NCBI GenBank assembly: GCA_041673665.1
Contig: JBAYXF010000001.1
Coordinates: 1 to 55,879, forward strand
Source of the DNA: Alphaproteobacteria bacterium
GTDB taxonomy: Bacteria; Pseudomonadota; Alphaproteobacteria; Rs-D84
Direction: 5' to 3'
DNA length: 55,879 nt
The translations under genes were made by a program, and so were the position numbers. How positions within the stretch are numbered: the first letter of the stretch is position 1; each line of letters opens with the position of its first letter. The notes under the pieces were generated by a model. The model saw only the letters and a program-made list of their open reading frames with translations, did not search any database and had not been told where the DNA came from. Below, in pieces: positions 1,310 to 47,680 of this stretch.

Positions 1310-1336
1310 TAAGTAATATAAGAATACATCCCTGTT

Positions 1337-1360
1337 GCCCGCGGCATGCCGCGGGCTTTA
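1337..1360 (+). terminator. Rho-independent terminator after aspS
   Basis: Perfect GC-rich palindrome gcccgcggca/tgccgcgggc (1337-1356) followed by ttta, 28 nt after the aspS stop. Confidence 0.7.
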
Positions 1361-1380
1361 TAATTATATACAAAGAGAGA

Positions 1381-1668
1381 ATGAATATGTTGTGTTACGA
1401 AAAAATAGAACGTATTTCACGGACAATGTGCTTGACCCCATACCAGCTATATATGCTTGAAGTAAATGCAGACAAATATAATTTAAATAAATTGGTAAAA
1501 TATGGGACTGCCTTATATGCGCCCTATAAATGCGAAATCTGTCATGGTTTTATAGACAAGCTTAAAAAAATATTTTTTGGGCCATGTGCTGATTTAATAG
1601 GCCCAGATACACTTTTGGTTTTTAATACTCGTGGGATAAAAGCCAAGCGCTTTATGCCCAATAACTAA
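1381..1668 (+). CDS. Hypothetical protein, 95 aa
   Basis: ORF only. It has a weak purine-rich stretch (agagaga) before the ATG and no recognisable motif. It overlaps the asmA-like stop by 4 nt. Confidence 0.3.
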   Translation: MNMLCYEKIERISRTMCLTPYQLYMLEVNADKYNLNKLVKYGTALYAPYKCEICHGFIDKLKKIFFGPCADLIGPDTLLVFNTRGIKAKRFMPNN

Positions 1669-4190: not shown

Positions 4191-4234
4191 ATTCTTCTCT
4201 CCCTTGCATTTTCATTATAATGAATTATATTTAA

Positions 4235-6229
4235 ATGGTGAATAAAAAAGTTTTTAATCTTGAATCTGACTATCAGCCGTCTGGGGACCAACCCCAGGCG
4301 ATTTCTGAATTAGTGGCTGGTTTAACAGAAGGCAGGCTCAGTCAGGTTTTGTTGGGCGCGACCGGTACAGGTAAAACATTTACCATGGCAAATGTAATTG
4401 CGGAGCTTGGGCGACCCACAATGATTATGGCGCCGAACAAAATTTTAGCAGCGCAACTATATACAGAAATGAAATCATTTTTTCCAAAGAACTGTGTTGA
4501 ATATTTTGTTTCTTATTATGATTATTATCAGCCCGAGGCTTATATGCCAACAACGGATACATACATAGACAAAGATGCATCTATCAATGATCAATTGGAT
4601 CGCATGCGTCATTCTGCAACACGCGCTATGTTGGAAGAGCGCGACGTTATCGTTGTATCGTCAGTGTCCAGTATTTATGGCATGGGCAGCCCTGCGCAAT
4701 ATGCGGGCATGAAACAGATTTTTCGTAGTGGCGATAAAATTAGCAGCAGGGAAGTAATGCGTGCTTTGGTAGATATTCAGTATAAGCGAAATGATATTGG
4801 TTTCGATCGTGGAGAATTTCGCGTTCGTGGTGATATGATTGATGTTTTCCCATCACACGCAACAGACCGCGGATGGAAGTTGTCTTTTTTCGGTGATGAA
4901 ATAGAAGACATTTGGGAATTTGATATTTTAACTGGAGCAAAACAAAGAAAGCTGGATAGGGTTGCGATTTATCCAAATACTCATTATGCAACGCCCCAAC
5001 CAACAATAAGACAAGCGATTGGTGAAATCAGAAAAGATTTAGAAGCACGCTTGGAATATTTTCATAAAAACATGAAATATGTCGAAGAGCAAAGATTGCG
5101 GGAACGTACAAACTTTGACATTGAAATGATGGAGGCAACTGGAACCTGTCGCGGTATTGAAAATTATTCCAGATATTTATCAGGACGTAAACCGGGCGAA
5201 CCGCCACCAACTTTGTTTGAATATTTGCCAAAAGATGCAATTTTATTTGTTGATGAATCGCATGTTTCTGTTCCACAAATTGGCGCAATGTCCAAGGGGG
5301 ATGCCGCGCGTAAAAGCACATTATCCCAATATGGATTTCGTTTACCTTCGTGCGCGGATAATCGTCCACTTAAATTTGAAGAATGGGATGCGATGCGTCC
5401 ACAGACAGTTTTTGTTTCTGCAACGCCCGCAGATTGGGAATTGGAACAAGCAGGTGGTATAGTGGCCGAGCAAGTAATTCGCCCAACAGGATTATTGGAT
5501 CCAATGGTTGATGTTCGCCCAACTAAAAACCAAATTGATGATTTATTGCATGAGGTTAAAAATGCATCCGGTCGCGTTTTGATAACAACCTTGACTAAAA
5601 AGATGGCGGAACAGTTAACAGATTATTTAACCGAGCATGGCGTCCGTGCAAAATATTTACACAGTGATATTGAAACATTGGAACGTATTGAATTATTACG
5701 TGAATTGCGCATGGGTAAATTTGATGTCTTGGTCGGGATTAATTTACTGCGCGAAGGATTGGATGTTCCAGAATGCGAATTGGTTGCAATTATGGATGCT
5801 GATAAAGAAGGATTTTTGCGTTCTACGCGCTCACTTATTCAAACAATTGGTCGCGCCGCGCGCAACGAGAATGGTCGTGTAATTTTATATGCAGATACCA
5901 TTACACACAGTATGAAAGATGCTATGGACGAAACTGTGCGCAGACGCGAAAAGCAAATGGCTTATAACGCTGTGCATGGCATAACACCAAAAACTATTGT
6001 TAAATCCATATTTTCAGAAGTAACAGACAGGGAAGAAAAAACAGATAAAAAACGACAATTTGTTTACACCAAGGCTGGTGGAGTCCAGGACCGCGCGGGA
6101 TTGGAAAAAGAAATTAAAGTACTGCGTAAAAAGATGTTAAAGTATGCTGAAAATCTAGAATTTGAAGAAGCAAGCGTAGTTCGTGATATAATGAGAAAAA
6201 TGGAAGAAGATTTATTATTGTTGGAGTAG
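4235..6229 (+). CDS. uvrB: Excinuclease ABC subunit B
   Basis: Walker [10 protein letters not shown], helicase motifs (DESH, VSATP), and the C-terminal UVR domain ([11 protein letters not shown]). Confidence 0.97.
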
Positions 6230-7381: not shown

Positions 7382-7469
7382 TAAAAAACCTTTGCGTTTT
7401 TCTTGCCATTTGGCCTTTACAAGTCTATAATAATCATCGTCCAATATAAAAACAACAGGGAATTTTAAA

Positions 7470-9050
7470 ATGAACATGTATCAGTTTTTGGAAACAGTTG
7501 TATCGGAAGTACCGAACGATCTGTTTTTAACGCGTGAGAAAGTAACTTATTCAGAATTTAATGAAATGGTGAAAAAACGCGCAACAACTCTTTCGGAAAT
7601 GGGCGTGAAAAAGGATGACGTTGTTGGGATCTTGTCCCACAATATCCCAGAATTTCCAGTGTCGCTGTTTGCGATTTGGTATCTGGGTGGCCAGGTCTTG
7701 ATGTTAGACACAAACCTGACTCCGTTTGAGTATGACAATATGACCAAACAAACCAAGTGCAAATTGGTTTTGGCCGAAAAAAGCTTTTTTTATAAAGCTG
7801 CAGACTTCAATTTTTATGACATAACAAAAAAAGACGAAAAGCTCGGGTCTGGTATTAAACCAGCGGCCGTGGAATCAGAAGACATTGCAACGTTATCATT
7901 TACCTCTGGTTCTACCGGCAAACCAAAAATTGTGCCATTGACACATTATAATTTGGTTGAGTGTTCAGATTCATTAGAAGATATGGGTGCATGGTTAAGA
8001 AAAGGCGATACTTTCTACGGCTTTTTACCAATGTACCATGTGTTTGGTTTCGCAGTTGAAATACTTGCAACAATCCATTTTAGGGGGAATATTCTTTTGC
8101 AGCCAACAATAAATCCAAAAGATTTATTGGATGACTTTCAAAAATACCGTCCACAGATTATTCCGGCCGTTCCACGCTTGTGGGAAGTTTTCCGCAATAA
8201 AATCATAGATGGAATGAAACAGAAGAAAATATGGTGGTTGGCGTCTTTCGTTTTGAAATACGGACCATTGCTTAAAAAACTGGGATTGGGTTTCTTGGTA
8301 AAAAAGATTCAAAAACCTGTTTTGGCTGTATTTGGTGGACGTGCCCGTTTATTGGTTGCAGGTGGTGCCGCGGTTAAACCAGAAGTGGAAACTTTCTATG
8401 AGCGTTTGGGCTTGTCCTTTATCCAGGGTTATGGATTGACCGAAACGGTTGGACCAATTTGTATATCAAAGCCCGTTAAACACCGTGAACCATTTGCTTT
8501 TGGTGGTCCAATAACAAATAACGAAGCTGAAATCCGTTCTAAAAACGCCGAAGGCATCGGTCTTTTGTGGGTGCATGGACATCAAGTATTTAGTGGTTAT
8601 TTAAATAATCCAGAAGCAAACAAAGAAGTCTTTGATGACAAGGGCTTTTTCAATACTGGTGATTTGGTGTCAATGGATAAAAATGGCGAATTGCATTTTC
8701 ACGGACGTCAAAAACAAGTTATTGTTCTTGATTCTGGTAAAAATGTTTATCCAAATGAATTAGAGGCTTTGTTTATGGAAATCCCAGGCGTTAAAAACGT
8801 TGCTGTGTTTGAACATACAATCAAAGACAAAACGGTTGCTTATGGAGTTTTCCAAGTAGAAGATGATATGACATTTGATAAACTGAAAAAAGCAGTTGCA
8901 AATGCAAATAAAAAGATAGCCAGTTATAAATGGGTTACGCATTTTGCAATGACTAAAAAGGAATTACCATTAACCAGTACACAAAAAATTAAACACCATG
9001 TGGTGCGTAAAAATCTGATTGATGGCGAATATCCAGAAAGTCGCGATTAA
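7470..9050 (+). CDS. AMP-dependent synthetase/ligase (long-chain acyl-CoA ligase-like)
   Basis: AMP-binding motif LSFTSGSTGKPKIV, plus GYGLTET and TGD motifs and the C-terminal lysine region. Confidence 0.85.
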   Translation: MNMYQFLETVVSEVPNDLFLTREKVTYSEFNEMVKKRATTLSEMGVKKDDVVGILSHNIPEFPVSLFAIWYLGGQVLMLDTNLTPFEYDNMTKQTKCKLVLAEKSFFYKAADFNFYDITKKDEKLGSGIKPAAVESEDIATLSFTSGSTGKPKIVPLTHYNLVECSDSLEDMGAWLRKGDTFYGFLPMYHVFGFAVEILATIHFRGNILLQPTINPKDLLDDFQKYRPQIIPAVPRLWEVFRNKIIDGMKQKKIWWLASFVLKYGPLLKKLGLGFLVKKIQKPVLAVFGGRARLLVAGGAAVKPEVETFYERLGLSFIQGYGLTETVGPICISKPVKHREPFAFGGPITNNEAEIRSKNAEGIGLLWVHGHQVFSGYLNNPEANKEVFDDKGFFNTGDLVSMDKNGELHFHGRQKQVIVLDSGKNVYPNELEALFMEIPGVKNVAVFEHTIKDKTVAYGVFQVEDDMTFDKLKKAVANANKKIASYKWVTHFAMTKKELPLTSTQKIKHHVVRKNLIDGEYPESRD

Positions 9051-21979: not shown

Positions 21980-22276
21980 TTATAATTGAGAAATAAAGTC
22001 TGGAAATCCATTGTCTTCTTCGTCTAATTTTTCTTCGTTTGATTCAGAAGGCGTGGCACATTTTTCGTTCGGCCCACGTGAAGTATCTATTTTAGATTGT
22101 TCGTCACTTACAACACGTCCATAGTGTTCCGCCATTTGTAAAAGACGTTCGCGCTCAATTGCGTCAGGCGTTTGACGTGCCTGATCCATATATTGTTTGC
22201 GTTTCTGACGCAGACGATGACAACGTTGAATCATAAGTCCAACAGACATTTGTTTTTTATTATTATTATTTTGCAT
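21980..22276 (-). CDS. DUF4167-like small basic protein
   Basis: 98 aa with a basic N-terminus and a LLQMAEHYGRV segment resembling the AEHY core of DUF4167 proteins common in Alphaproteobacteria. Confidence 0.5.
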   Translation of the reverse strand: MQNNNNKKQMSVGLMIQRCHRLRQKRKQYMDQARQTPDAIERERLLQMAEHYGRVVSDEQSKIDTSRGPNEKCATPSESNEEKLDEEDNGFPDFISQL

Positions 22277-22395: not shown

Positions 22396-22419
22396 CACAG
22401 TGTGTAGGAGGGATGCACC

Positions 22420-23856
22420 TTGCAAAGCGAAGCCCGTGGAAATTTTTTATTACAAGCTTTGCTTGCGATTGCCCTGGTAATGTTTTTTATGCCCTTTGTG
22501 GCACAAAAATTATCATCAAAGAAAAACGATTCCGAATTAAGCGCAATTGCACGCCAAGCAAACAGTGCTGCATATGCTGCACGTGAATTTATAAAAGCAA
22601 GCAAAGACAATCTTGCTTATGGTCAGCAACACTTTAAAGATGATGATTTTACCGATTTATTGGAACCGTTTGGTCTACCTTTGGGATTTGTTACACAAAC
22701 CAGTGCAAACCAGGAAATATCTCTTTTTACGGGAAAAAAAGAATCTGAAATTTTAAGTGTGATAGTTTTGCGTGGCGGAAATTTATCGGAACTTAAAAAA
22801 AGGGAGCTGCTTACGCGCATTGGGCCGGACGCCGCCATCGCTGATGCAGATGGAATTTTACATGGGATCGGTGGTTGGGAAAAGAATCTGAAAGATTTTA
22901 AAATCAAGCCGGATGTTTCGGCTGTTTACATTTTAATCCCTTCAGATGATGATTTTTCGGAACTTGTTCGTAGAAAAGCAGAGAATCTGGCCCGGGCAAA
23001 ATTTCATACTAATTTAAACATGGGAAATTTTTCTATAAAAAATGTTGTTTCGTTGACCACAAGAAATGCAGAATTTGACGTTGCTAATTTTGATACACTT
23101 TCTATTACTGGTTCCGGCGGGGATAGAAAATTTAAAAACGATATAGGTGTGTTGTCCACAAAGCGTGCGGTATTTCAAAAGGGGAAGGATGACAACCCAT
23201 TAAGCATTTATCGTGGCGATCTAAAAGCAACTGCATTGTATGCTCAAACATTATTTAAATATGGATTGCCAGGAACCATTTATGCAAACAGTGCTTCGCT
23301 AAATTCTTTATCTATGTCTGCTGGGCATACAGGATTTTATGGTATGTATGATTGGGATGTCCACAGTGATGTTATCTTAAACAATGTTTCTATAGATACA
23401 GAATATTTAGAAGTAAATGGTTTTATAAACGCTTCGCGCGGGCAAGACGTTTTTATTGATCAAGATGAGTTAACTTATTTCAGTAAAAGCGGAGTAGAAA
23501 CAGAATCTATAACCACGGCATTTATAACCTTACGAGATCAAATATCCAGTGCGTTATTATCTGGCGACGATAGTGCTATAATTATGGATATCAGGCCGGC
23601 CGGAGTCTCCGTGCTTCCTGACATTTTAGTAGACACCATAGATAATGATAATTTTCAAATTCTTAAAAATCCGGACTTGGATGATGGGGAAGTTGTTACT
23701 TGTAGAAGTATAATTTCATCACTTTCATCATCATCAACTTATAATTCAAAATCAGTAATACAAAATATTATTTGCCAGTTTGTATTTTGGCAACGACTGG
23801 AACGCCGTATAGATATTAAACAATGTTTGATAGATGGAAACAGTGATTGTGGATAA
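22420..23856 (+). CDS. Large type IV pilin-like protein P1 (prepilin-type N-terminus, 478 aa)
   Basis: The TTG start is preceded by AGGAGGG. N-terminus is MQSEARG|NFLLQALLAIALVMFFMPF, with Gly at -1, Gln at +5 and a 20-residue hydrophobic helix. It is paralogous to the next two ORFs. Four Cys lie in the last 51 aa. Confidence 0.6.
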   Translation: MQSEARGNFLLQALLAIALVMFFMPFVAQKLSSKKNDSELSAIARQANSAAYAAREFIKASKDNLAYGQQHFKDDDFTDLLEPFGLPLGFVTQTSANQEISLFTGKKESEILSVIVLRGGNLSELKKRELLTRIGPDAAIADADGILHGIGGWEKNLKDFKIKPDVSAVYILIPSDDDFSELVRRKAENLARAKFHTNLNMGNFSIKNVVSLTTRNAEFDVANFDTLSITGSGGDRKFKNDIGVLSTKRAVFQKGKDDNPLSIYRGDLKATALYAQTLFKYGLPGTIYANSASLNSLSMSAGHTGFYGMYDWDVHSDVILNNVSIDTEYLEVNGFINASRGQDVFIDQDELTYFSKSGVETESITTAFITLRDQISSALLSGDDSAIIMDIRPAGVSVLPDILVDTIDNDNFQILKNPDLDDGEVVTCRSIISSLSSSSTYNSKSVIQNIICQFVFWQRLERRIDIKQCLIDGNSDCG

Positions 23857-25096
23857 TTGCATTGATAAAAAATATTTTTATAAAGAGCAAAAAGGTTCAG
23901 GGTTAATGGAAACCCTGCTGGCAATTGCAATTGTTGGTGCAATAATGCCCTTTGCCTATAATAGTGTAATGGATATGAGTCGCAAAGTCGCGGATGTATC
24001 TGAATCAAAACGTATTATTGCATGGCAAGATCCAGTTATGGCATATGTTCGTAAAAATCAGGCAGATTGGCCATCAAATGCCCAGGTAGAATTTGATGAG
24101 GAAGAGGTTGTTAATATTGGCACAGGAGATAATCGTTTGCTAAAACCATATGCTGGGTTTATTGAAAAACGCGAGGGTTCGGGGGGAATATCAATAAATG
24201 CATATCTTGCTTTTAAGCCGGTTGATATAAAAAAAGTAAGGGTTGCGAATATCGTTCAAAATATAGGTGTTGATGCCGCAATGGTGCAATCTGGCGGTGA
24301 AGCCGTCAGCCAAAGCGGGTGGAGTATTTCATCGGAATTATTTACAGAAGGTGATTTAATTTTCAGGGTTTCTGATATTTTGGGTGAAGACGATGTATAT
24401 AAATATTTACACAGAACATATCTGGATGATAAAGAATTAAATACTATGCGGCGAGATTTGGATATGGCAAAGAACAGTATATCTGGGGTTGGGAAAATAA
24501 CGGCGCAAACTATAAATGCAACAGGCGCAAAAGCCTGGTTTGTTAATTCTTCAAAAGTTATAACAAACGAAATCTTTTTCCCAGAGGGGATGACAATTGA
24601 TGCGTCCAAGGCCATATTTGGGTCTATAACAGTAAATGGCGACGTTAATGGTTTTAGAAAAATTACAGCAGATAAATTAAAACATGTTGGGACAATGTCC
24701 AGTGCTACATGGGCAACCAAGGGGGATATAATTGCGGACTCGGTCAATATAAATGGACCGGTACATGTTCAGCGTGATATGGTTGTAAAATCAGAAAGCG
24801 CACGGACAATTACTGGGTTTGCTGGAATTCGTACCCAGGCGGTTGCTACGCCATATTTATATGCGGACAATTTAATTTTCCAGGCAGGTTATGGAATAAC
24901 AATTTCCAGTGATTTATTATATTCTAGTTCTGGCGAATCAATCACAATAGGTAGCTGGAGGTTTCCATCAACAACAGGGCCGGGATTTTCAGAATTGATT
25001 TTGAAAAAAACAAGCGATGAAGAATTTGGAGAAGCGCTGGCAACGCCAGATAGTGAAGATTTTTCTCCGCTGATGACAAGCGGGTGGAAAGATTAA
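23834..25096 (+). CDS. Large type IV pilin-like protein P2 (420 aa)
   Basis: N-terminus ...DKKYFYKEQKG|SGLMETLLAIAIVGAIMPF, with Gly at -1 and Glu at +5. The leader aligns with that of P3, which favours the ATG at 23834 over the internal ATG at 23906. It overlaps the P1 stop by 23 nt. Confidence 0.6.
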   Translation: METVIVDNCIDKKYFYKEQKGSGLMETLLAIAIVGAIMPFAYNSVMDMSRKVADVSESKRIIAWQDPVMAYVRKNQADWPSNAQVEFDEEEVVNIGTGDNRLLKPYAGFIEKREGSGGISINAYLAFKPVDIKKVRVANIVQNIGVDAAMVQSGGEAVSQSGWSISSELFTEGDLIFRVSDILGEDDVYKYLHRTYLDDKELNTMRRDLDMAKNSISGVGKITAQTINATGAKAWFVNSSKVITNEIFFPEGMTIDASKAIFGSITVNGDVNGFRKITADKLKHVGTMSSATWATKGDIIADSVNINGPVHVQRDMVVKSESARTITGFAGIRTQAVATPYLYADNLIFQAGYGITISSDLLYSSSGESITIGSWRFPSTTGPGFSELILKKTSDEEFGEALATPDSEDFSPLMTSGWKD

Positions 25097-25112
25097 GTAA
25101 TTTATAAAATAA

Positions 25113-26417
25113 ATGAAAAACAAAAGAAAATTTTTTAAAAATGAATACGGCGGAATGATGTTAGAAATTCTGCTGTCGTTGGCAATTACAGTTGCTGTTG
25201 TTCCATTTGTTATGCGCGAGTTAAATAGTCGTACGCATCGTGCTGAAAATGTTCGTATTGCGCGCGATATCAGCGAGACTAAAGAAGCCTTGGAAAGATA
25301 TATGACTGCTCATAAACTCAAATTATTAGAGCCGTCTGGTCGTGTAGTTATCAAGGTTAAAATTAGTGATTTATCAGAATACGGAAACATTCCAAAAGAT
25401 CATGAAAAATTTCAAGCACGCATAATAAAATCTAGGAGTATCAGCGGGCGTACGGTGTTGTCTGGTATGGTTATATATGATTCTGCAGAGATATCGCCAA
25501 TTCGTACACGCGAAATAGCTGAACTGGGTGGGGAATCATCAGGGTTCATAGATAATAACCAAGCACATGGAGTATTTGGTACGTGGCATTCTAGAACAAA
25601 TATTTTTGATGCAACGTTCAGTAACAATTCTGTCGTAGAAAATACAAATACAATTTTGTCAGGTGGGGATTTTTTATGGAGGCTTCCTTCAAAAAATTCT
25701 CTTGATGCATCAATGTCAACAGACTTGCTAATCGGAGATAACAGTATAGAAGATGTTTCAACAATTGATACGTATGGGGCGAATTTTACAGAAATTTTAA
25801 AATCGGGTTTAATTAATGTAGAAACGGTTCAGATTACACCACGTGCGGAATTGTCTGCAGAATTAAATGTTTCCGGGGAAACGCTAGTAATCGGAGCATT
25901 AACATCAGATTCAAGAAGCGCAGAAATAAGCGGAAGTTTATCATTAACTGATACAGGTACAGTTTCAAAATTAGAAGCAAGAGAGATATGGGTTGGGGAT
26001 TTGACTTTGAACGGATTAACTATTAATGGCAGTGCCGAGCCAGCAATTTTAAAAGTTAGTAGCACGATAGATATTACAAGAGGAAAAATTACAACAACAA
26101 CAGCGACTATTGGATATACTGGATCTGTTTCTCCAAAGATTGTTGTAACAGACCGTATAGAAGATCCATCAAATTCTTCATATTATTGGGATTTAACAAC
26201 AGATAAAGCATCTTTTTCAGATGTTTACTGTGCTGAACTAAATCAGATATTAAAAACCGCAATTACTAATGAATCACAAACTATAAGAACCAAGACGGAA
26301 ACAATAATAAGGGCAATTGCCGCAAACAGCAATGCTACTATTTCTGATTATGTCAAGGCATTAAGTGAAATTCAAACCAGTGTAACAGCGAAATATAATA
26401 ACTTGAATTTAGACTAA
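25113..26417 (+). CDS. Large type IV pilin-like protein P3 (434 aa)
   Basis: N-terminus MKNKRKFFKNEYG|GMMLEILLSLAITVAVVPF, with Gly at -1 and Glu at +5. It shares internal motifs with P1 and P2. Confidence 0.6.
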   Translation: MKNKRKFFKNEYGGMMLEILLSLAITVAVVPFVMRELNSRTHRAENVRIARDISETKEALERYMTAHKLKLLEPSGRVVIKVKISDLSEYGNIPKDHEKFQARIIKSRSISGRTVLSGMVIYDSAEISPIRTREIAELGGESSGFIDNNQAHGVFGTWHSRTNIFDATFSNNSVVENTNTILSGGDFLWRLPSKNSLDASMSTDLLIGDNSIEDVSTIDTYGANFTEILKSGLINVETVQITPRAELSAELNVSGETLVIGALTSDSRSAEISGSLSLTDTGTVSKLEAREIWVGDLTLNGLTINGSAEPAILKVSSTIDITRGKITTTTATIGYTGSVSPKIVVTDRIEDPSNSSYYWDLTTDKASFSDVYCAELNQILKTAITNESQTIRTKTETIIRAIAANSNATISDYVKALSEIQTSVTAKYNNLNLD

Positions 26418-26451: not shown

Positions 26452-26930
26452 ATGAAAATAACGTGCCCTTTTTGCAAAGTAAATTATTCTGTTCGTAATG
26501 ATAATAATCATACATACGAATGTGCTGTATGTGGTTGTGTTTGGCGGGCACCGATCATTCAAAAAAAATCAAAAATATTGGTTTTCTCATTATACTTTTT
26601 GGTTTATTACTGGCTGCTTTATCTTTGGCCGCCATGATTTTATGGTTCCCACTTGGAAAGCAAAACGCTTTATCTGTTTATATGGACTCTGCACAATCGG
26701 TTGGCGATGTTTTAATTGTTTCAGGCCAGATTGAAAATAAGTCAGAAAAATTACACGGTATACCAGATTTAATGATTGTAATAAAAGATGATAATGATAC
26801 AGAAATATCAACACAAAAGTTTGCGCCACCAGCACCATTATTAGATGCCGGGGAAAAAACAAATTTTTCGGTTCAGGTTCATAATGTCCCAGAAAAAATA
26901 GCAAAAGTTTCAGTAGAGTTAAATGATTAA
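26452..26930 (+). pseudogene. MJ0042-type zinc-ribbon / TM / DUF3426-like protein, interrupted by a -1 frameshift
   Basis: Frame A (26452-) encodes MKITCPFCKVNYSV...YECAVCGCVW, a CxxC...CxxC zinc ribbon. Frame B (through 26930) encodes the expected TM helix (IGFLIILFGLLLAALSLAAMILW) and a beta-rich DUF3426-like domain. The frames meet at the A8 tract. Confidence 0.7.
26561..26568 (+). repeat. A8 homopolymer at the frameshift point (A_AAA_AAA in the upstream frame)
   Basis: Read directly: cattc-aaaaaaaa-tcaaaaat. One additional A would fuse the two frames. Confidence 0.9.
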
Positions 26931-26949
26931 TATGCAAAAGGTATTTAAT

Positions 26950-27405
26950 ATGAAAAAAATCTTTTTAACTATTTTGTTTTCAATAATTTGTATGTCCGCA
27001 TATGCAGCAATAAGCGCGGTAAGTATATTTTCTACCAGTACAGACTGGGAAAGGGTTACAGGATTACGCTATAGCCAATTTGATGTTTCTTTTGTGCGCG
27101 ATAAATCATTGGGCAGTAAAGGGATGGAGATTTATTTTCTAGATGGATTTCCATGCATAGGACAGGCTGAAACAGCCAGGGCTTGGATTTCCCCCAGTAA
27201 TTTTTCAAGCAAGGATAAAAAGGCAAACATGAACATCAGTTGTGTGCAACGTCCGAAACAAATTCGATTTGCATGGCGCGAAGCGAATGAAAAAGATTCT
27301 CAATCTAAAACAACCGGCATAATGACTTGTCAGATAGCCGGGGATGGACGTGAAATAGAAATTTTATTAAGTGATTGCGTCAAGGGGAAAAACTGGAATG
27401 AGTAA
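26950..27405 (+). CDS. Secreted hypothetical protein (about 151 aa)
   Basis: Sec signal MKKIFLTILFSIICMSAYA|A, with four Cys in the mature part. The start is taken at the ATG at 26950 rather than the track start at 26923. Confidence 0.5.
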   Translation: MKKIFLTILFSIICMSAYAAISAVSIFSTSTDWERVTGLRYSQFDVSFVRDKSLGSKGMEIYFLDGFPCIGQAETARAWISPSNFSSKDKKANMNISCVQRPKQIRFAWREANEKDSQSKTTGIMTCQIAGDGREIEILLSDCVKGKNWNE

Positions 27406-28357
27406 TACAAGAATATTTATTGCGAAAGAGTCTGACGTCAGTTTGCGGATGGATAAATTTTTGGTATATAATATGCCAGAATTTTCACGCAGTGAAATAC
27501 AGAAATTTATTATTAAAAGAATTCCAGATACAGATGAAATAAAATTCTCTGAAAAAATTAAACTGGGGGACAAGGTAGAAGTTATAATCCCAGAAAAAGA
27601 ACATAATCAATTACTCCCCATAAATAAAAAAATCAAATTTGAAATAGATGTCTTGTTCGAAGACGATGATATTATTGTTATAAATAAACCACGTGCTGTT
27701 GCTATGTATCCTGGCGCGGGTCGTGAAACAGATACTTTGGTTCAGCGTGTTTTATCGCATACCAATTTGTCCGTCCAGGGCGGCCCAATGCGTCCAGGAG
27801 TTGTGCATCGTTTGGACAAAGATACCAGCGGAATCGTAATTTTTGCAAAATCTGATGCGGCATATCGCGTGCTTATTAAAACATTTGCCAGACATGATTT
27901 ATCACGCAAATATATTGCTTTTGTTTGGGGTATTCCCAATTGGACCGAGGCTGATATCAGTGGCAACATCGGGCGTAGTGCAAAAAATCGTCAAAAAATG
28001 ACAATGTTAAAAGTCGGGGGAAAACATGCAGAAACCAGTGTCGAGGTCATAGGTGCATGGTCTGACGTTGGAATTTCTAAATTGCGTTGTACTTTGTTTA
28101 CTGGGCGCACACATCAGATACGTGTACATTTATCTGCACATGGATTCCCATTGGTATGTGATCCATTATATGGACGTGGAAGTGCGCGATTGGGCAGTGT
28201 AAAAAATCCAGAATTATTAGATTTTATAAAAACACATCATGGGCAAATGTTGCATGCTGAGGTTCTGGAATTAAAACATCCAATAACTGGTGAAATTATA
28301 AAATTAAAAACTAAATTGCCAGATGATATGAAAGAGCTGCAAGAAATTCTGGGCTAG
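27398..28357 (+). CDS. rluD: RluA-family 23S rRNA pseudouridine synthase (RluD-like)
   Basis: N-terminal S4-like domain (RMDKFL), catalytic HRLDKDTSGIVIFAKS, and GRTHQIRVHL. The start is taken at the ATG at 27398. Confidence 0.88.
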   Translation: MSNTRIFIAKESDVSLRMDKFLVYNMPEFSRSEIQKFIIKRIPDTDEIKFSEKIKLGDKVEVIIPEKEHNQLLPINKKIKFEIDVLFEDDDIIVINKPRAVAMYPGAGRETDTLVQRVLSHTNLSVQGGPMRPGVVHRLDKDTSGIVIFAKSDAAYRVLIKTFARHDLSRKYIAFVWGIPNWTEADISGNIGRSAKNRQKMTMLKVGGKHAETSVEVIGAWSDVGISKLRCTLFTGRTHQIRVHLSAHGFPLVCDPLYGRGSARLGSVKNPELLDFIKTHHGQMLHAEVLELKHPITGEIIKLKTKLPDDMKELQEILG

Positions 28358-28363
28358 GTTTTT

Positions 28364-28858
28364 CTATTTTATATTTGCGGCCATTTCGGTCGCTATTTTT
28401 TTAACTGAAATCATATATGGATTTATACATCCCATGCATCCAGTTTTTTTATCACGAAAATCACAATATTGAATAAAGCCGTAACAAGTGCTTACCTTTG
28501 GGATTATGGTTATAATTTTTTGTGGTTCGAAATCATAAGGATTTAAAAAAAGTATATTGTCGTGAGACGAAGAAAGTCTTAAAGTTGGCATATCACAAAA
28601 ATCGCTGGAACAAGACCCCTTTAAAAATTCTGGAGATATTTTTGAAGTATCAATTTTTTGTATTTCTTTTGAAACCGTTTTTATAAAAAGTTCTTTTAAT
28701 TCAAAATAATATAATGTTTTTGATTTTATAATAATACTGTCAGATCCCGGCCAAACGTCGTTCATACAAACCCGTGTTTTTTTTAAATGGTGATTATCAG
28801 GAAATTGTATTTCTAAAGTCCCTGTATATTTTTCTTCTTTTGGTTCAATATTTGGCAT
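28364..28858 (-). CDS. Hypothetical Cys-rich protein, 164 aa
   Basis: ORF with no signal peptide and clustered cysteines (CSSDFC, CYGFIQYC, CMGC). No family recognised. Confidence 0.45.
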   Translation of the reverse strand: MPNIEPKEEKYTGTLEIQFPDNHHLKKTRVCMNDVWPGSDSIIIKSKTLYYFELKELFIKTVSKEIQKIDTSKISPEFLKGSCSSDFCDMPTLRLSSSHDNILFLNPYDFEPQKIITIIPKVSTCYGFIQYCDFRDKKTGCMGCINPYMISVKKIATEMAANIK

Positions 28859-38156: not shown

Positions 38157-38771
38157 TTATTCCTTAAAATCATCAGGGTTTATATTTAATTCTGTTTTTA
38201 TTCTGTGCTCTAACCTTTTTTGAATTTCATCAAAAACTTGCAATAAAGCCGGTTCTGAAGCAAACATATCACGATAAGACTTGCTGAAATACCATTTCCA
38301 ATAAACCCCATTATCATAAGAACCAATATGATCCAACGTCTTTGAAAATAATGTTTGGAAACATACATCTAATCTATCAAGCATTTTTACAAATTTTGAT
38401 TCTGGTGTTTTTTGTTCCTCGTATTCTTGCCATAAAGTTTCAAACTCTGAATTATTCAGCAATTTTGTAAATTCATTCATTATTTCAGTTTCGTCTTTTT
38501 CTTTTTTTTCACGTGCCGCATCATCATTTAATGTTTTATGCGCTGGAATATCATGAGATTTACTTTCTGGCAAGTCGTGCGCAGCACAAAGTTTTAAAAC
38601 GCGTTCCATATTAAGTGTTACGGATGCTTTTGGAACAAATGTTATCGCCATCAATGACAGCATAAAACAATGTGCAGCCACAGATTGTTGTTCCCCATCG
38701 GACATTCTGGTTGTGCGTTTTTCATAATGTAAATGTTCCGCTGTTTTAAAAAATTCAATAATATTATTCAT
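38157..38771 (-). CDS. HD-domain phosphohydrolase (YfbR-like 5'-nucleotidase family)
   Basis: QSVAAHCF...AAHDLPESKSHDIP matches the H...HD...D pattern of HD_3 proteins. The start is taken at the ATG at 38771, overlapping the upstream stop by 8 nt. Confidence 0.6.
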   Translation of the reverse strand: MNNIIEFFKTAEHLHYEKRTTRMSDGEQQSVAAHCFMLSLMAITFVPKASVTLNMERVLKLCAAHDLPESKSHDIPAHKTLNDDAAREKKEKDETEIMNEFTKLLNNSEFETLWQEYEEQKTPESKFVKMLDRLDVCFQTLFSKTLDHIGSYDNGVYWKWYFSKSYRDMFASEPALLQVFDEIQKRLEHRIKTELNINPDDFKE

Positions 38772-40074
38772 CCAAATACTCGCGCAGTTTATCTCCGGAA
38801 AGTTCAGCGGCCGGTTCATCGTCCGCAGAGTCTACGATTGAAATAACACGTGGGCTCATGAATATCACCAATTCTGCAAATGGGTTTATTAATGTTTCAG
38901 ATGTTGTTACAAAGCTGTGTGTTGGGATGCCGATAATTACATAATTATCACCCAGTTTTGTTGGAACGTTAAAACTGGCCAGTTCCCCAGCGGTTGTACG
39001 CAGTGCAATTTTCGCATCTACTTTTTTCATATCGGCGTATTTTCCATATTTACCAGTTGCGCCAACGATTAAATCAGTTTCCAATCTGTCTTCGCGTGAG
39101 CATTGACCAATATCAAATCTGCTTTGCCAGCCGTTTGGTATTACAAATGTTCCCTGGGAAATTAAAACTACATTTGCTTGGTCGGATAAAAATGTTTGTA
39201 ATGTTTTTGTGTTTATTTCTGGGGATACAACCAGCAATCTGCCAACAACGCCAGGGATAGACATTTTGACATTCTTTTCCCCAAATGCGGGCAGCATATT
39301 CATCCAAACAATTGGATTGTCGGTACGTGGATATACACGGTATACATCCATATCCCATGCAACCAAGAATTTTTTATTTCCGATATCGGAAACGATATCA
39401 CGAACTTTCTTTTCGATTTGATAATTCCCTTCGAACGCCAAGGTTTTATCTTCCCAGTTAGTTATTAAATTACGCAAGTCAGCACCATGCATTGCATCAA
39501 TTAATGCCATGATTACGTATTGATCTTTAGGCATTTTCATCAGCCATTTTCCACGACTGGAAATACGAAGCTCTCTGGTGTCGTCGTCATAGGTATAGTA
39601 AGTTTTACCAAGTTTACAAATTAGTTCTACGGCGTCTTCTAGTGTTCCAGATGTAATCTCACCACTGATTAAGTCAGGTAATTTCTCACTGGCAACAATT
39701 TTAATTTTTGTTCCATCAAGTAATTTTTCCAAAACAGCTGGTACATTTTTTTTCTGGAAAGAAAAATTTTCTACAGCAAAATCTGGAAGATTATCGCCCT
39801 TGTTCAAACGAACAATTTCAACGGGCGTTGTTGGCAGAACAGATAATATACTTTGGTTGTCCCAATCAACTTTGCATCGTTTTGGCAAATCAATTGCAAA
39901 TTTTTGTGCGGTATCTGTTGTTAAAGCAGCCTTGCGTGGAAAGATCGGAACAGAATGTTCGTCCACTACAATGTTTTCAACCACTTGGACAGTGTCATAT
40001 TGTTGTTGATTTCGACTTTGAAATTGTTGGCATGCACCAACAAATAAAATCAAAAGCAAATATAATTTTCTCAT
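38764..40074 (-). CDS. Outer-membrane lipoprotein with a divergent secretin-like C-terminal domain
   Basis: Lipobox LFVGAC. The C-terminal half reads NVVLISQGTFVIPNGWQSRFDIG ... ASFNVPTKLGDNYVIIGIPT ... FAELVIFMSPRVISI. This parallels the secretin pattern (vLssP.i.t.nn..a.i.vG ... t.v.v.dG.tvviGGl ... eLlifitPrii). Confidence 0.4.
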   Translation of the reverse strand: MRKLYLLLILFVGACQQFQSRNQQQYDTVQVVENIVVDEHSVPIFPRKAALTTDTAQKFAIDLPKRCKVDWDNQSILSVLPTTPVEIVRLNKGDNLPDFAVENFSFQKKNVPAVLEKLLDGTKIKIVASEKLPDLISGEITSGTLEDAVELICKLGKTYYTYDDDTRELRISSRGKWLMKMPKDQYVIMALIDAMHGADLRNLITNWEDKTLAFEGNYQIEKKVRDIVSDIGNKKFLVAWDMDVYRVYPRTDNPIVWMNMLPAFGEKNVKMSIPGVVGRLLVVSPEINTKTLQTFLSDQANVVLISQGTFVIPNGWQSRFDIGQCSREDRLETDLIVGATGKYGKYADMKKVDAKIALRTTAGELASFNVPTKLGDNYVIIGIPTHSFVTTSETLINPFAELVIFMSPRVISIVDSADDEPAAELSGDKLREYLDE

Positions 40075-40083
40075 TTTGGTCCC

Positions 40084-40392
40084 TTATATATTCATAACAC
40101 GTTCAAATTCTTCGAGTGTCATTTCATAGATTGGTTTATTACTGGGGGTAATCAAATTTTTTGCACCCTGAAATTCGGTTTGATATTTTTTTATCAATGC
40201 TTTTAATTTGGCGTCGGTGGGATTTATTTTTTCGCCGTACGCATTCAGCATTTCCAGAACATCTGCCGCAAAAAAGCGCCCCGTATAATTTTCAGCTGCG
40301 ATACCACCTTTTTGGGTACGTATTGCGGCGGATAAAATTTTCAAAGCCTCATAAAATCCGGCTATACGGATATATCTTTCTTCCGCGGTCAT
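40084..40392 (-). CDS. Hypothetical cytoplasmic protein, 102 aa (first gene of the secretin-like/lol operon)
   Basis: ORF only, predicted helical. It lies 9 nt upstream of the lipoprotein gene on the same strand. Confidence 0.4.
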   Translation of the reverse strand: MTAEERYIRIAGFYEALKILSAAIRTQKGGIAAENYTGRFFAADVLEMLNAYGEKINPTDAKLKALIKKYQTEFQGAKNLITPSNKPIYEMTLEEFERVMNI

Positions 40393-40529: not shown

Positions 40530-40919
40530 ATGAAAAGAACTTTTGTCCTTGTTGCTTTATCGTTTGCGCTTTTGGTGGGATGTTCATCTGCTAATCGTGG
40601 ATCCATTGACGATGCGACGGTTTTAAATTGGGAAAATGATATGGTTACGACCGAACAATTTGTTCGTGATCATAAAAATTGTTTGGGAATAACACGTTCC
40701 CCTTATGAACCCAGATCTAGATTAGCCAAGCTTATCAGCCCAAATCAATCCAGTTTGATGCCAGATTGGGATGGCTTATGGGTGACTTTTCAATCCAATG
40801 AAAATAAAGACATCGGGCAGCGTTCTTTGATGTCGGTTCCTCCTAATTCCAGCTCCAGATCAGTTGGGGCGTATCGTAAATGTATGATGCGTCGTGGTTA
40901 TTTGTTGCGCGCAAATTAA
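40530..40919 (+). CDS. Hypothetical lipoprotein, 129 aa
   Basis: Signal peptide with lipobox LLVGC. No recognised domain. Confidence 0.5.
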   Translation: MKRTFVLVALSFALLVGCSSANRGSIDDATVLNWENDMVTTEQFVRDHKNCLGITRSPYEPRSRLAKLISPNQSSLMPDWDGLWVTFQSNENKDIGQRSLMSVPPNSSSRSVGAYRKCMMRRGYLLRAN

Positions 40920-41648: not shown

Positions 41649-43421
41649 ATGAATTTAACAGAAGGCTCTTTTTTGTGTTTAGATATAGGTTCGGGCGGGG
41701 TGCACGCGGTCGCTGCACGGGTTTGTTTTGGACGGCTTAAAGTTTCATCAAATATATATGTTGAATCCAGGGATATTGTGTATGCGGTCAAGACGGCGGT
41801 GGATAATTTAGAAGAACAAATAGGGGCCAGATTCGACAAGGCGTTTGTTACGGGAAATTTCGGAGAAATTAAATCAGAAATTTTTTCAAGAAAAAGCGTA
41901 TGGGAAACAGAACGAAAAATTACACCAAATGATATTCTAGAACAAATATCAGATGTTACCCAAGATGATATTTCTGTATTACATATAATGCCTTTACGTT
42001 ATGATTTAGGGGGTGCGCGAAATCTTTCTAACCCGCTGGGGCATATTGATCATGCATTGCATTCGGTGTTTAATGTAATTGCTTATTTGAACAAGGGTTT
42101 AATGCGCGCAAAATCTGCGTTGCATGCTGCACATCTAGAGTCCGAAGGTTTTTTCGATCCGATGTTTTTGCTGGGATTGTCTGCGCGCAAAGCATCAGAA
42201 AATTCTGTATTCATAGATTTTGGCGCAGAATTTACCAGCGTTTCTATGTGGACCGCGCGTGGGCCGATGTTGATTAAAAAAATACCAATGGGCGGGATTG
42301 ATATTACAAGGGCAATTGCTAATACTTTTAATTTACCAATTATAGAAGCAGAAAGATTAAAAATTTCCAGCATGAATCTGGAACAATCTGATATGGATAG
42401 ATTTACTCCGGCGGATTCTAAATATGATATAACCAGATTTGATGTGAACGAAATAGCAAGCAGTGTTTTTTCTGAAATTATATGTCAGGTTGGTGATGTT
42501 TTAAGCACAGGAATAGAAAAATATAATCCAGAACGACTGTATGTAAGTGGTGGTGGCTCTGGTACTAACGGATTAGAAAAGTTTTTAAAAAAAGAATTTG
42601 GTATGCCGGTTAAAAATATGGGCTCGTTCGGTATAGTTAATTCATTGGCAGAATTTGTATGGAATACTGAATCTGAAAGGGTCAAAGGATATTTAGAACG
42701 CAGAAAAAAATGGGAAAAATTTTTTAACTTTTTAGCAGCACCATTGAATTGGAGATTTTATCCACGTCGTAAAAAAATTATTCCGATTATGCCCAGTACT
42801 TTATGTTGGGACATGCGAAGTTCAGACACTTATGCCAGATTTGAATCTGCAGATATCAGTATGATTCATGTTGATATAATGGATGGATTTTATGTTGAAA
42901 GAATTGCCAGTGGAATTGATGAACTTCGATTCATACGTGCGCATACCGCGGCTCATTTACACGTTCATTTAATGACGGAAAACCAGGCGACTTGGACGAA
43001 AGAAGCGATTGAATGTGGTGCGGACACAATTATTGTTTCAACCGGAACAAATGGTGTAATTCGTGCGTTAAAAGAAATACAATCTGCGGGAAAACGTTCT
43101 GGAATTGCGTTACATCCAGAATCTTCGTTAGAAGTTATAGCCCCAGTTTTAAGGGGTGTTGATGAAGTAATGGTAATGTCAGTTATCCCAGGAGAATCAG
43201 GACAAGAGTTTATAGAAGAGTCAATATCAAGAATTGCTTCTCTTGCTAATACCAGACGCAAACATGGATTAAAATTTAAAATTTCTGTTGATGGCGGAAT
43301 AAATCCGGAAACGGCGAAAAAATGTTGGGCGGCTGGCGCGGATTTTCTAGTCTCTGGCAGTTTTTTAAGTGGTGCTCCAGATTTTGCCGTAGCGGTGCAA
43401 GAACTTTTGGAAAAAAAGTAG
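41649..43421 (+). CDS. ftsA: FtsA-like cell division protein fused in frame to a ribulose-phosphate 3-epimerase-like domain
   Basis: aa 1-350 are an actin-fold FtsA (LDIGSGGVHAV, 1C/SHS2 region ITPNDI..VLHIMPLRYDLGG, GGIDITRAIA, LYVSGGGSG). aa 351-370 (RRKKWEKFFNFLAAPLNWRF) look like the FtsA amphipathic membrane-targeting helix. aa 375-590 carry RPE motifs (IHVDIMDG, HVHLM, MSVIPGESGQEF, VDGGI, GADFLVSGS). No stop codon separates the parts. Confidence 0.7.
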   Translation: MNLTEGSFLCLDIGSGGVHAVAARVCFGRLKVSSNIYVESRDIVYAVKTAVDNLEEQIGARFDKAFVTGNFGEIKSEIFSRKSVWETERKITPNDILEQISDVTQDDISVLHIMPLRYDLGGARNLSNPLGHIDHALHSVFNVIAYLNKGLMRAKSALHAAHLESEGFFDPMFLLGLSARKASENSVFIDFGAEFTSVSMWTARGPMLIKKIPMGGIDITRAIANTFNLPIIEAERLKISSMNLEQSDMDRFTPADSKYDITRFDVNEIASSVFSEIICQVGDVLSTGIEKYNPERLYVSGGGSGTNGLEKFLKKEFGMPVKNMGSFGIVNSLAEFVWNTESERVKGYLERRKKWEKFFNFLAAPLNWRFYPRRKKIIPIMPSTLCWDMRSSDTYARFESADISMIHVDIMDGFYVERIASGIDELRFIRAHTAAHLHVHLMTENQATWTKEAIECGADTIIVSTGTNGVIRALKEIQSAGKRSGIALHPESSLEVIAPVLRGVDEVMVMSVIPGESGQEFIEESISRIASLANTRRKHGLKFKISVDGGINPETAKKCWAAGADFLVSGSFLSGAPDFAVAVQELLEKK

Positions 43422-46316: not shown

Positions 46317-46826
46317 TTATTTTTTAAACCATTTTTTTAAATCATCATAAGCAGCAGAAATTTTTGTAAATTCTGATGCTGCAGCGCTTTTATTTTTTGC
46401 AGTATCTGGATGACATGTTTTTGCAAGTGTGCGATATTTTGCCGATATTTCACGCCAATTTGCGGTTGGGGGCAGGTCAAAGACTTTTAATGCGTTTGAC
46501 ACTGCAGCAGGCGCACGGACAGGGCGTTTACGTGCAGATGTTGTATCAAATGCGCTGCGGCCATTTAAAAAATTGCGCAGAAAATCTATATATTCTGCAT
46601 TTGCTGCTTCTGCGGCTGCACGATCTTTGTCGGAAATTCCAAATGTTTCGCGTTCCCAATCTTGTTCAATTTCATCATTGCTCATCCCAGCATAATAATT
46701 CCAATTTTTATTGTATTCTGCAGCATGCTCTTTGCAGAACCAGTAATATTCGTTCAGGTTGCGTGATTTAGGGGCGCGACATACGCCCGCCTTGGTACAA
46801 CCTTTAAAATCACATTTTTTAATCAT
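46317..46826 (-). CDS. J-domain protein with N-terminal Cys-rich zinc-finger-like region
   Basis: C-terminal J domain with an HPD tripeptide (YRTLAKTCHPDTAK). N-terminal region is CDFKGCTKAGVCRAP..YWFCKEHAAEYNKNWN, an architecture common in Alphaproteobacteria. Confidence 0.75.
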   Translation of the reverse strand: MIKKCDFKGCTKAGVCRAPKSRNLNEYYWFCKEHAAEYNKNWNYYAGMSNDEIEQDWERETFGISDKDRAAAEAANAEYIDFLRNFLNGRSAFDTTSARKRPVRAPAAVSNALKVFDLPPTANWREISAKYRTLAKTCHPDTAKNKSAAASEFTKISAAYDDLKKWFKK

Positions 46827-47680
46827 TTTTTATCTTTCTTTGCCATTGGATGATGAACAAATACGGCTTCTTTTAACTTTTCTGGCATTACGTGGGTATA
46901 AATTTGTGTTGTTGCTATGTCCTCGTGTCCCAACATCATTTGGATTGCGCGTAAATTTGCCCCATTTGCAAGCAGGTGTGATGCAAACGAATGCCTTAAA
47001 ACGTGCGGACTGACACGGCTGGGCGAAATGCCGGATAAAACCGCGCATTTTTTTAGAATTTTGCAAAACCCATCACGTGTAATATGCCCAGTTTTAGACA
47101 CAGATGGGAAAATATATTTAGATTTTTCCCCTCCGCGTATTTCTAGCCATTTTTCCAATGCTGCTTGGGCACCGGAATGCATAGGAACCATTCGTTCTTT
47201 TGCACCTTTGCCGTGAATCAATAATTTATCGCCAAGTATAGCGGCCATGGGAAGTTCGCACAACTCGGAAACACGCAGCCCCGAAGCATATAATAATTCC
47301 ATCATTGCCCGCAGACGTACAGAATTTCTGGTGTCGCCAGCATTAGAAATCAATAACTCTATTTCGTGCTCGGTTAAAAACTTTGGTAATTTCTTTTGTT
47401 TTTTTGGCAGTTCCAGCCCATCTGACGGATTGTCACGAATTATTTTTTCAGTCGCTAAAAATTTGTAAAAACCACGTAATGCACTGGTCTTTCTGGCAAT
47501 AGATGCGGGCGTTTCATGCAGATTGGCCAGATACTTTTGCAGCTGGGATTTATTTGCAGATGACAGGGCCCCAATGGCTTCGCTTGCCATGCGCAGATCG
47601 CGACCATATGCTTCTAGTGTTTTAGCACTGCGACCTTTTTCAGCTGCCAACATTTCCAAGAATATTTCAATATGATTCAT
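46823..47680 (-). CDS. xerD: Tyrosine recombinase XerD
   Basis: N-terminal SAM-like region FLEMLAAEKGRSAKTLEAYGRDL. Catalytic region is LRHSFASHLL...MLGHEDIATTQIYTHV. Confidence 0.85.
   Translation of the reverse strand: MNHIEIFLEMLAAEKGRSAKTLEAYGRDLRMASEAIGALSSANKSQLQKYLANLHETPASIARKTSALRGFYKFLATEKIIRDNPSDGLELPKKQKKLPKFLTEHEIELLISNAGDTRNSVRLRAMMELLYASGLRVSELCELPMAAILGDKLLIHGKGAKERMVPMHSGAQAALEKWLEIRGGEKSKYIFPSVSKTGHITRDGFCKILKKCAVLSGISPSRVSPHVLRHSFASHLLANGANLRAIQMMLGHEDIATTQIYTHVMPEKLKEAVFVHHPMAKKDKK

Follow-up and report, generated by a model that had tools for sequence, protein, structure and literature searches.

What are three consecutive genes for large proteins with type IV prepilin-like N-termini doing in a stretch of DNA that holds no pilus machinery? 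The question is raised by a 55,879-nucleotide stretch (hereafter the window; positions 1 to 55,879 of the forward strand of contig JBAYXF010000001.1, assembly GCA_041673665.1) from an alphaproteobacterium of the order Rs-D84, in which genes here called P1 (22420-23856), P2 (23834-25096), and P3 (25113-26417) follow one another on the plus strand and encode proteins of 478, 420, and 434 amino acids (aa). An earlier sequence-only reading proposed that all three carry prepilin-type signals and found them strange on several counts, namely, giant size, no recognizable family, and no machinery nearby. The prepilin-type idea stands, and the strangeness is largely resolved. We put at roughly 0.68 the probability that the trio consists of three ancient PilV paralogs, each a PilV-like large minor pilin, which together make up a complex that forms the tip of a vertically inherited type IVb pilus or primes its assembly, P1 being the first subunit.

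The description of three consecutive same-strand open reading frames (ORFs) with aligned N-termini proved accurate in both its coordinates and the residues quoted. P1 begins at a TTG codon, a start supported by the AGGAGG ribosome binding site that precedes it (22406-22411, 8 nt 5' of the TTG), and the 3' end of P1 overlaps the 5' end of P2 by 23 nt. Each protein opens with a predicted class III signal and a hydrophobic stretch, encoded on the plus strand at 22420-22497 in P1 (where it includes the hydrophobic alpha-1 N-terminus), 23834-23953 in P2, and 25113-25208 in P3. The P1 leader MQSEARG is followed by NFLLQ, with predicted cleavage after Gly7 (22440/22441); the P2 leader ends in KEQKG and is followed by SGLME, with predicted cleavage after Gly21 (23896/23897); and the P3 leader, MKNKRKFFKNEYG, is followed by GMMLE, with predicted cleavage after Gly13 (25151/25152). 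A regular expression for this signature, [KRQEY]-G-x4-[EQ]-11 to 13 hydrophobic residues-P-[FLIMVW], was run on the 260 ORFs that the window has in its six frames at a length of 60 aa or more, and it matched only P1, P2, and P3; 200 shuffles of those ORFs gave 0 matches.

The signature is also conserved in orthologs. Gly at -1 is invariant in the P1, P2, and P3 ortholog families wherever the N-terminus is present (112/112 in the P1 family), and the Pro-Phe pair that closes the hydrophobic stretch is nearly so. At +5, P1 homologs have Gln (118/118), and the homologs of P2 (22/22) and P3 (31/31) have Glu; tallying the regular expression over the 90 sequences used for the locus counts (89 loci of the clade plus the window) returned similar majorities. 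Pairwise BLASTP among the three proteins gave 21-26% identity across 220-320 residues (E values of 7e-9 to 8e-8), which makes them distant paralogs. Their C-terminal parts are mutually unrelated in the same pairwise comparisons, and uncultured Alphaproteobacteria carry a separate family of orthologs for each protein. The C-terminal end of P1 carries four Cys residues that are invariant across orthologs, which fits an extracytoplasmic location, and that of P3 is helical.

The three proteins had been assigned to no characterized family, a view that profile comparison overturns: by that measure, their N-terminal domains (~200-270 aa) are homologous to PilV/Shufflon_N (PF04917) of R64-type type IVb pili. 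One P3 ortholog (P0032) passes the Pfam cutoff for Shufflon_N outright (32.6 bits versus 27.5, residues 45-269), a P1 ortholog (P0045) reaches 22.1 bits against the same cutoff, and Shufflon_N is detected at E<=0.01 in 7/103 members of the trio families. When P0032 was compared by tblastn with 72,556 plasmids, 82 records matched, and every annotated match among those listed falls on a gene annotated pilV, at 25-27% identity over ~270 residues. An exhaustive HMMER search of 1.84e9 representative proteins with the P1 profile returned 120 matches, the distant ones covering profile positions 1 to ~210; among the 42 full-length distant matches scanned, 18 contain Shufflon_N (best E value, 7e-104) and 7 contain N_methyl.

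Profile-profile alignment with hhalign pointed in the same direction. The P3 family aligned with PilV of the Gluconobacter plasmid pGOX1 (96%, E value of 4.6e-9) and with PilV of a Yersinia plasmid (87%, 3.6e-6), and the P1 family aligned with pGOX1 PilV (92%, 5.5e-7). The P2 family reached only 14.5% against a single PilV and 99.95% (E value of 8e-38) against the distant PilV-like set, in register from the QRG/xxLLE motif; the homology of P2 to PilV is thus drawn from this match to the wider set together with its paralogy to P1 and P3. A motif at about residues 180-210, R...(E)LNTM..DL.MGGN.I.N, is common to PilV and the P1, P2, and P3 families, with the P2 form reading YLxR...ELNTM..DLxM..N.I. 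Automatic annotation has given a few orthologs the names "PilV," "type II secretion system protein," "PilE," or "PulG." The T2SSK, GspI/J, GspL/M, GspD, and TadE models of Pfam and NCBIfam did not match the trio, nor did GspK in phmmer searches, and GspG gave weak N-terminal matches only (E>=0.014). Two other similarities were set aside, a below-threshold ComGG_2 match to P1 (E value of 0.019) in the Pfam/NCBIfam scans and a FliD_C similarity of P3 (E value of 0.008, seen in 3/103 family members), which we treat as noise.

Once the proteins are placed among type IVb pilins, two further peculiarities dissolve. Asn, Ser, or Gly at +1 had been thought odd, yet in type IVb pilins a residue other than Phe at that position is ordinary. 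Likewise, mature parts of more than 400 aa, a figure that holds for P1 and P3 but not for P2 (399 aa), are matched by the 423-aa mature TcpB (PMC5207764) and by the annotated plasmid PilV proteins used here, which have 425-448 aa.

Predicted structures agree with a pilin-type architecture. In AlphaFold2 (AF2) models, P1 forms a helix at residues 9-60 followed by a beta domain, with a predicted local distance difference test score (pLDDT) of 80-92 to about residue 175, and P3 forms a helix at residues 13-66 followed by a beta domain (pLDDT of 75-90 to about residue 180); both helices, of more than 50 residues, start at the hydrophobic segment and are modeled with confidence, and the small beta domains have 4-6 strands at a pLDDT of 75-92. 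The three family profiles matched no PDB sequence significantly; a thymidylate synthase match (E value of 1.6) is put down to chance, and the N-terminal helix of a Geobacter pilin (E values of 0.011 and 0.13) is a weak echo of the pilin helix only. With the conserved Gly at -1 and Glu or Gln at +5, the modeled helix-plus-beta arrangement, and the PilV homology, the N-termini are best read as class III motifs on predicted pilin-fold proteins.

The trio is a fixed feature of its clade. When each GTDB species was represented by a single genome, relatives of P1 were found in 286 genomes, including a complete 716,531-bp chromosome (OZ246409.1). These genomes are gut metagenome-assembled genomes (MAGs) labeled Candidatus Enterousia, Alphaproteobacteria, or Rickettsiales, and they belong to Rs-D84, an order described as nonflagellated, with genome sizes of 0.67-1.6 Mb, whose members probably live as obligate symbionts or parasites (PMC12306168). 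P1, P2, and P3 occur in the same order and on the same strand in 88/90 loci, down to ~36-45% identity. Far more distant trios, whose proteins have 426-494 aa and G/xxxxE N-termini, were found in other housekeeping contexts, one before recO/parC with a CcrM-like methylase nearby (L010 10001-14433, GCA_031549385.1), in which all three proteins have Glu at +5, and one beside lepA (L008 149-4163); these suggest that the three-gene module is older and wider than Rs-D84. In the literature searches made, neither the trio nor Rs-D84 pili turned up as the subject of a paper. As a side observation, the alphaproteobacterial locus also appears under Bacteroidota labels, i.e., "uncultured Muribaculaceae bacterium" (L011, L013, L033, and L034) and "Bacteroides fragilis" (L076), which are probably taxonomic mislabels of MAGs; OZ246409.1 is among the records with a Bacteroidota label.

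The window itself is as bare of pilus machinery as the sequence-only reading had it. Pfam scans of essentially all its real genes and phmmer searches with known pil/gsp proteins revealed no T2SSE ATPase, T2SSF platform protein, A24 prepilin peptidase, or secretin in the 55.9 kb. The inference that the trio are orphans holds within these limits, but it fails for related Rs-D84 genomes, which were searched by comparing R64-type, pGOX1, and Escherichia coli pil/gsp queries with all trio loci and then applying Pfam. In an Enterousia MAG (KA0024-133, locus L085), an operon 4-8 kb upstream of the trio encodes a PAP_PilO protein (28 bits, above the cutoff), a secreted product of 234 aa, an ATPase of the T2SSE family (210 bits), and a platform protein of the T2SSF family (99 bits), with pil genes at 1222-5887 and 7423-7881 of that locus, both on the minus strand. 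In 56 loci, dnaX and an ompA-like gene flank a gene for a PilS-like major pilin of 152 aa, at a distance of 2.1-2.6 kb upstream of the trio (for example, L003 4911-5366, minus strand); the product matches PF08805 (24.1 bits versus a cutoff of 22), starts with the leader M(K/R)xxSG, after which comes RSLIE(V/I)IGVLAI, and contains two conserved Cys residues. A hidden Markov model built from these 56 pilins found no match in the window.

The ATPase is 73-91% identical across the best 80 of 175 related loci, which come from gut metagenomes and include contigs of 935, 697, and 595 kb; around it, these 80 loci keep the same four-gene operon (pilO, the 234-aa gene, the ATPase gene, and the platform gene; also at L110 7910-12662), flanked by lpxK, lpxC, and gyrB. 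An ATPase-bearing contig (OIZA01000017.1, 125,164 bp) and the trio-bearing contig URBZ01000003.1 (MAG UMGS860) have the same length and node number, from which we infer, short of proof, that they are one contig on which the trio and the ATPase cluster stand ~100 kb apart. The pil genes of the Rs-D84 lineage thus appear to be dispersed in small groups among core genes, and the machinery of the window's own genome is deduced from these relatives because none lies in the window. Queries with PilN, GspD, TcpQ, PilM, PilP, GspL, and GspM gave no match in the loci searched, in which pilU and pilN homologs were likewise not found, and a GxGD[V/A..]K active-site expression for the peptidase picked out no membrane-protein candidate in related loci. 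Weak GspO/PilU-type matches ~5 kb upstream of the ATPase, obtained with phmmer (--max), were rejected as false positives, being DUF374 acyltransferases by Pfam.

The immediate neighbors of the trio were described as purely housekeeping, which does not hold. Upstream and divergent lies a DUF4167-like gene of 98 aa (21980-22276, minus strand; Pfam DUF4167 E value of 5e-4, below the curated cutoff), whose homolog adjoins the trio in 87/90 loci, including L001, L003, and L007. Downstream of P3, on the plus strand, come a gene resembling zitP (26452-26930), a gene for a 160-aa protein with a signal peptide (26923-27405) that overlaps both of its neighbors, and an rluD-type pseudouridine synthase gene (27371-28357), the last of the conserved block, with PF00849 at the orthologous position in L001, L003, L006, L007, and L009. 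This tight block, from the opposite-strand DUF4167 gene through P1, P2, P3, the zinc-ribbon gene, and the 160-aa gene to rluD, is kept even where the upstream flank switches to dnaX, comEC, or lptF/G, and the gene arrangement predicts that the trio forms one operon with the ZitP-like gene, the 160-aa secreted-protein gene, and rluD. A terminator-like hairpin follows rluD at 28377-28393; the number of such sites is not above chance, and the counts of promoter- and terminator-like sites in the window do not exceed the shuffled expectation. The 160-aa protein has no Pfam or NCBIfam match, yet it has an ortholog in 86/90 loci (E value of 2e-35 to the window copy) and may be a further component of the trio system; its conserved motif is SIFSTS(T/V)DWE.VTGLR. 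On one termite-gut MAG contig, a ComEC-type gene (L006 7504-9513, minus strand; PF03772) stands upstream of the trio with one 154-aa gene between, which is a hint, not evidence, of a pilus serving DNA uptake.

The gene that follows P3 resembles zitP. Its intact orthologs, of 161-175 aa, follow P3 in 86/90 loci and, like ZitP of Caulobacter crescentus, appear to combine an N-terminal MJ0042-type zinc ribbon, one transmembrane segment, and a periplasmic DUF3426/FxLYD-like domain. TIGR02098 and FxLYD_dom are each detected in 14/18 orthologs; the window fragment reaches 23.3 bits for FxLYD_dom against a cutoff of 23 and 19.5 bits for DUF3426, below the cutoff, and in the family DUF3426 and Zn_ribbon_4 score below their Pfam cutoffs, as do most domain scores against curated thresholds. 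The family profile matches the PDB zinc ribbon 2nb9 (E value of 7e-4), which we take to be that of Caulobacter ZitP. In the window, comparison with the L001 ortholog shows the gene split into two frames by a frameshift in an A8 run at ~26560-26570, which could be a sequencing or assembly error, or could be real and possibly phase variable. The Caulobacter protein is also tied to pilus biogenesis (PMC5182063, PMC5182065), for which its DUF3426 domain is needed (PMC5182063). It differs in being 311 aa long, so that the proteins described here are about half its size, and in serving a Tad (type IVc) pilus through CpaM, whereas the gene described here sits in the operon of a PilV-type trio. The operon linkage of the ZitP-like gene suggests a role in placing or assembling the pilus machine.

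The rest of the window is housekeeping: aspS, uvrB, tsaE, secB, mltA, ruvABC, mnmE, recA, kdsAB, typA, and serS, as well as rluD, rsmI, lolCDE, ftsQ/A, lptF/G, greA, mutL, and secDF. After ftsQ lies a 590-aa ORF (41649-43421, plus strand) that joins an FtsA domain (residues 187-322) to a ribulose-phosphate 3-epimerase domain (residues 381-572), and a 914-aa ORF without any Pfam match (43528-46272, plus strand) stands where ftsZ would be expected. Further family-less ORFs lie at 38764-40074 and 40084-40392 (both minus strand), 40530-40919 (plus strand), and 28364-28858 (minus strand); the one of 436 aa, beside lolCDE, has a 443-aa counterpart at the same position in L001 and is probably a real conserved gene.

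A model of the trio can be proposed from these findings. P1, P2, and P3 would each insert in the inner membrane through the N-terminal hydrophobic helix, a prepilin peptidase would cut the short leader after the invariant Gly, and the three would then form a heteromeric tip or priming complex. Onto this complex, a PilQ-type ATPase, a PilR-type platform protein, and a PilO-type accessory protein, encoded elsewhere in the genome, would polymerize the 152-aa PilS-like pilin. P1, with Gln5, would be the first and most distal subunit, beneath which P2 and P3, with Glu5, would dock; this order is proposed because Gln always replaces Glu in P1, as would suit a subunit with none above it whose N-terminal amine needs neutralizing. 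Glu5 is dispensable in the subunit that starts a filament and is missing from tip subunits of the GspK type (PMC5207764). At the pilus tip, the C-terminal parts, which are large and specific to each family, may be exposed as modules that bind a partner cell or host surface or capture DNA or another substrate, and the ZitP-like protein may place the machine in the envelope or help assemble it, as ZitP does for the Caulobacter pilus.

Known systems offer partial precedents for such an arrangement. PilV of the IncI1 and IncI2 plasmids (R64 and TP114) and of integrative and conjugative element-borne or chromosomal R64-type pili shares with the trio the Gly(-1)/Glu5 leader, an N-terminal domain of ~200-270 aa, and a total length of ~420-480 aa, and it works with a PilS-type pilin, PilO, a PilQ-type ATPase, and a PilR-type platform, all of which have counterparts in the clade of the trio. 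In contrast to PilV systems, however, which have a single gene in one plasmid operon, shufflon repeats, and Rci, we find three fixed paralogs, one with Gln5, that lie on the chromosome and are passed on vertically, in a lineage whose pil genes are interspersed with housekeeping genes, and that have a linked ZitP-like gene. Between 22300 and 27500, only short imperfect repeats at chance level were found, with no adjacent recombinase; the sole integrase-family gene of the window, XerC/D-like, lies at 46823-47680. TcpB of the toxin-coregulated pilus (TCP) of Vibrio cholerae and CofB of enterotoxigenic E. coli CFA/III are also pilin-like proteins of more than 400 aa with a short leader (7 residues in TcpB) that initiate assembly and sit at the tip (for TcpB, PMC5207764). 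CofB is cited in PMC9045228 as a homotrimer at the pilus tip, and the three-paralog set could mimic its three-fold arrangement as described there. These two proteins have no detectable sequence similarity to the trio, as judged by the lack of PDB matches, and in their systems a single minor pilin acts as a homotrimer with its genes in one operon. The GspK-GspI-GspJ and type IVa PilV/W/X-FimU sets resemble the trio in comprising several side-by-side minor pilins of which exactly one, proposed to be first, lacks Glu5 (PMC5207764), but their proteins are small except for GspK and belong to other sequence families.

Several observations weigh against this model. GspK-type subunits that lack Glu5 typically have a hydrophobic residue there and are encoded last, whereas P1 has Gln and is encoded first in the cluster. 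The window proteins themselves fall below the Pfam threshold of the PilV family, and Pfam/NCBIfam scans of P1, P2, and P3 returned nothing above threshold, with no Shufflon_N and no N_methyl (PF07963) or TIGR02532 at E<=1. Although the C-termini of P1 and P3 are modeled with confidence, the central 150-200 residues are not, and because of that low confidence we claim no fold, beta-helix or other, for this part; Foldseek comparison of the two AF2 models with the PDB gave no significant match (PilS, E value of 1.0; XcpV/W, E value of 3.2). No PilS-like pilin or ATPase operon was found within the +/-10 kb covered in the window's own genome and its nearest subclade. Neither the window nor ~170 related loci, which cover a small part of any genome, yielded an A24 prepilin peptidase or a secretin, and in a genome survey of Rs-D84, the sole lineage with reported type IV pili was a different one (PMC12306168).

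Some of these same points invite other explanations. The trio could be pilin-derived envelope proteins that act independently of a pilus, as uncleaved anchors in a periplasmic or polar structure with the ZitP-like and 160-aa secreted proteins. The missing peptidase is the main support for this idea, and the missing secretin, the position of the operon amid housekeeping genes with rluD at its end, the partnership with a ZitP-like polarity factor, and the survey without a report of type IV pili for the order (PMC12306168) are consistent with it. An invariant Gly at -1 and a buried Glu at +5 within a membrane helix are nevertheless hard to explain for a plain anchor, and the clade keeps highly conserved genes for a type IVb ATPase, platform, PilO, and major pilin, the last just 2 kb away in 56 loci; we regard this explanation as quite improbable. 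Alternatively, the filament could be the periplasmic pseudopilus of a machine like the type II secretion system, with the trio as a GspK/I/J-like tip that pushes substrates out and a bulky P1 that stalls growth. One of the three subunits lacks Glu5, as does GspK (PMC5207764), no retraction ATPase lies beside the assembly ATPase, some orthologs bear the names "type II secretion system protein" or "PulG," and TCP, itself a type IVb pilus, also secretes a protein (PMC5207764). The lack of a secretin in the loci searched would fit as well, although a secretin was seen neither way. The homology, however, is to R64-type PilV, PilS, and PilO rather than to Gsp proteins, with no T2SSK, GspL/M, or GspD match and no candidate substrate identified, so that a secretion pseudopilus seems unlikely.

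A third possibility accepts the pilus but not the complex: each paralog might serve singly as the tip pilin, a hard-wired equivalent of the shufflon that swaps PilV C-termini for target specificity. PilV serves as adhesin in the type IVb pili of IncI2 and selects recipients for IncI plasmids, in which its variants are interchangeable adhesins (PMC9045228), and the mutually unrelated C-terminal parts of P1, P2, and P3 are what such a division of labor would predict. Against it, 88/90 loci retain all three ortholog groups in an unchanging order even though the genomes are very small, the systematic Gln-versus-Glu difference at +5 points to distinct structural positions, and the genes, which overlap or adjoin in a single operon, show neither inversion repeats nor signs of differential switching; alternative adhesins thus have little probability in our judgment. 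Because of the fixed order, the overlapping frames, and the systematic difference at +5, we favor instead three nonredundant positions in one type IVb tip complex.

What such a pilus would do is a matter of speculation: a role in binding partner cells or host surfaces, or in taking up DNA or nutrients, would suit a lineage with reduced metabolism. The fullest version of the model, in which the entire order Rs-D84, made up of gut bacteria that depend obligately on partners and have genomes below 1 Mb, keeps a vertically inherited R64-type pilus dispersed among core genes, with a PilV heterotrimer at its tip, P1 as the cap, and polar placement through the ZitP-like protein, and uses it for partner attachment or for DNA or nutrient uptake, is one we put forward tentatively and regard as possible rather than probable.

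In sum, PilV-type pilins also occur outside plasmids and genomic islands. If this fullest version is true, the CofB/TcpB homotrimer would have a heteromeric counterpart in the trio, which would also be the first role for PilV-type pilins outside mobile elements. On the tip complex model, the trio offers a natural case in which a single large type IVb tip pilin has become three specialized subunits, and one subunit without Glu5 makes ideas about tip priming and capping testable. Rs-D84, comprising Candidatus Enterousia and its relatives, has genomes of about 0.7-1 Mb, is widely distributed in the guts of humans, ruminants, rodents, birds, and termites, and is thought to live off other cells. 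Given that the trio occupies ~4 kb of a small genome and is kept in 286 species-level genomes, the trio and the scattered pilus genes are likely to be core to the lifestyle of these bacteria.

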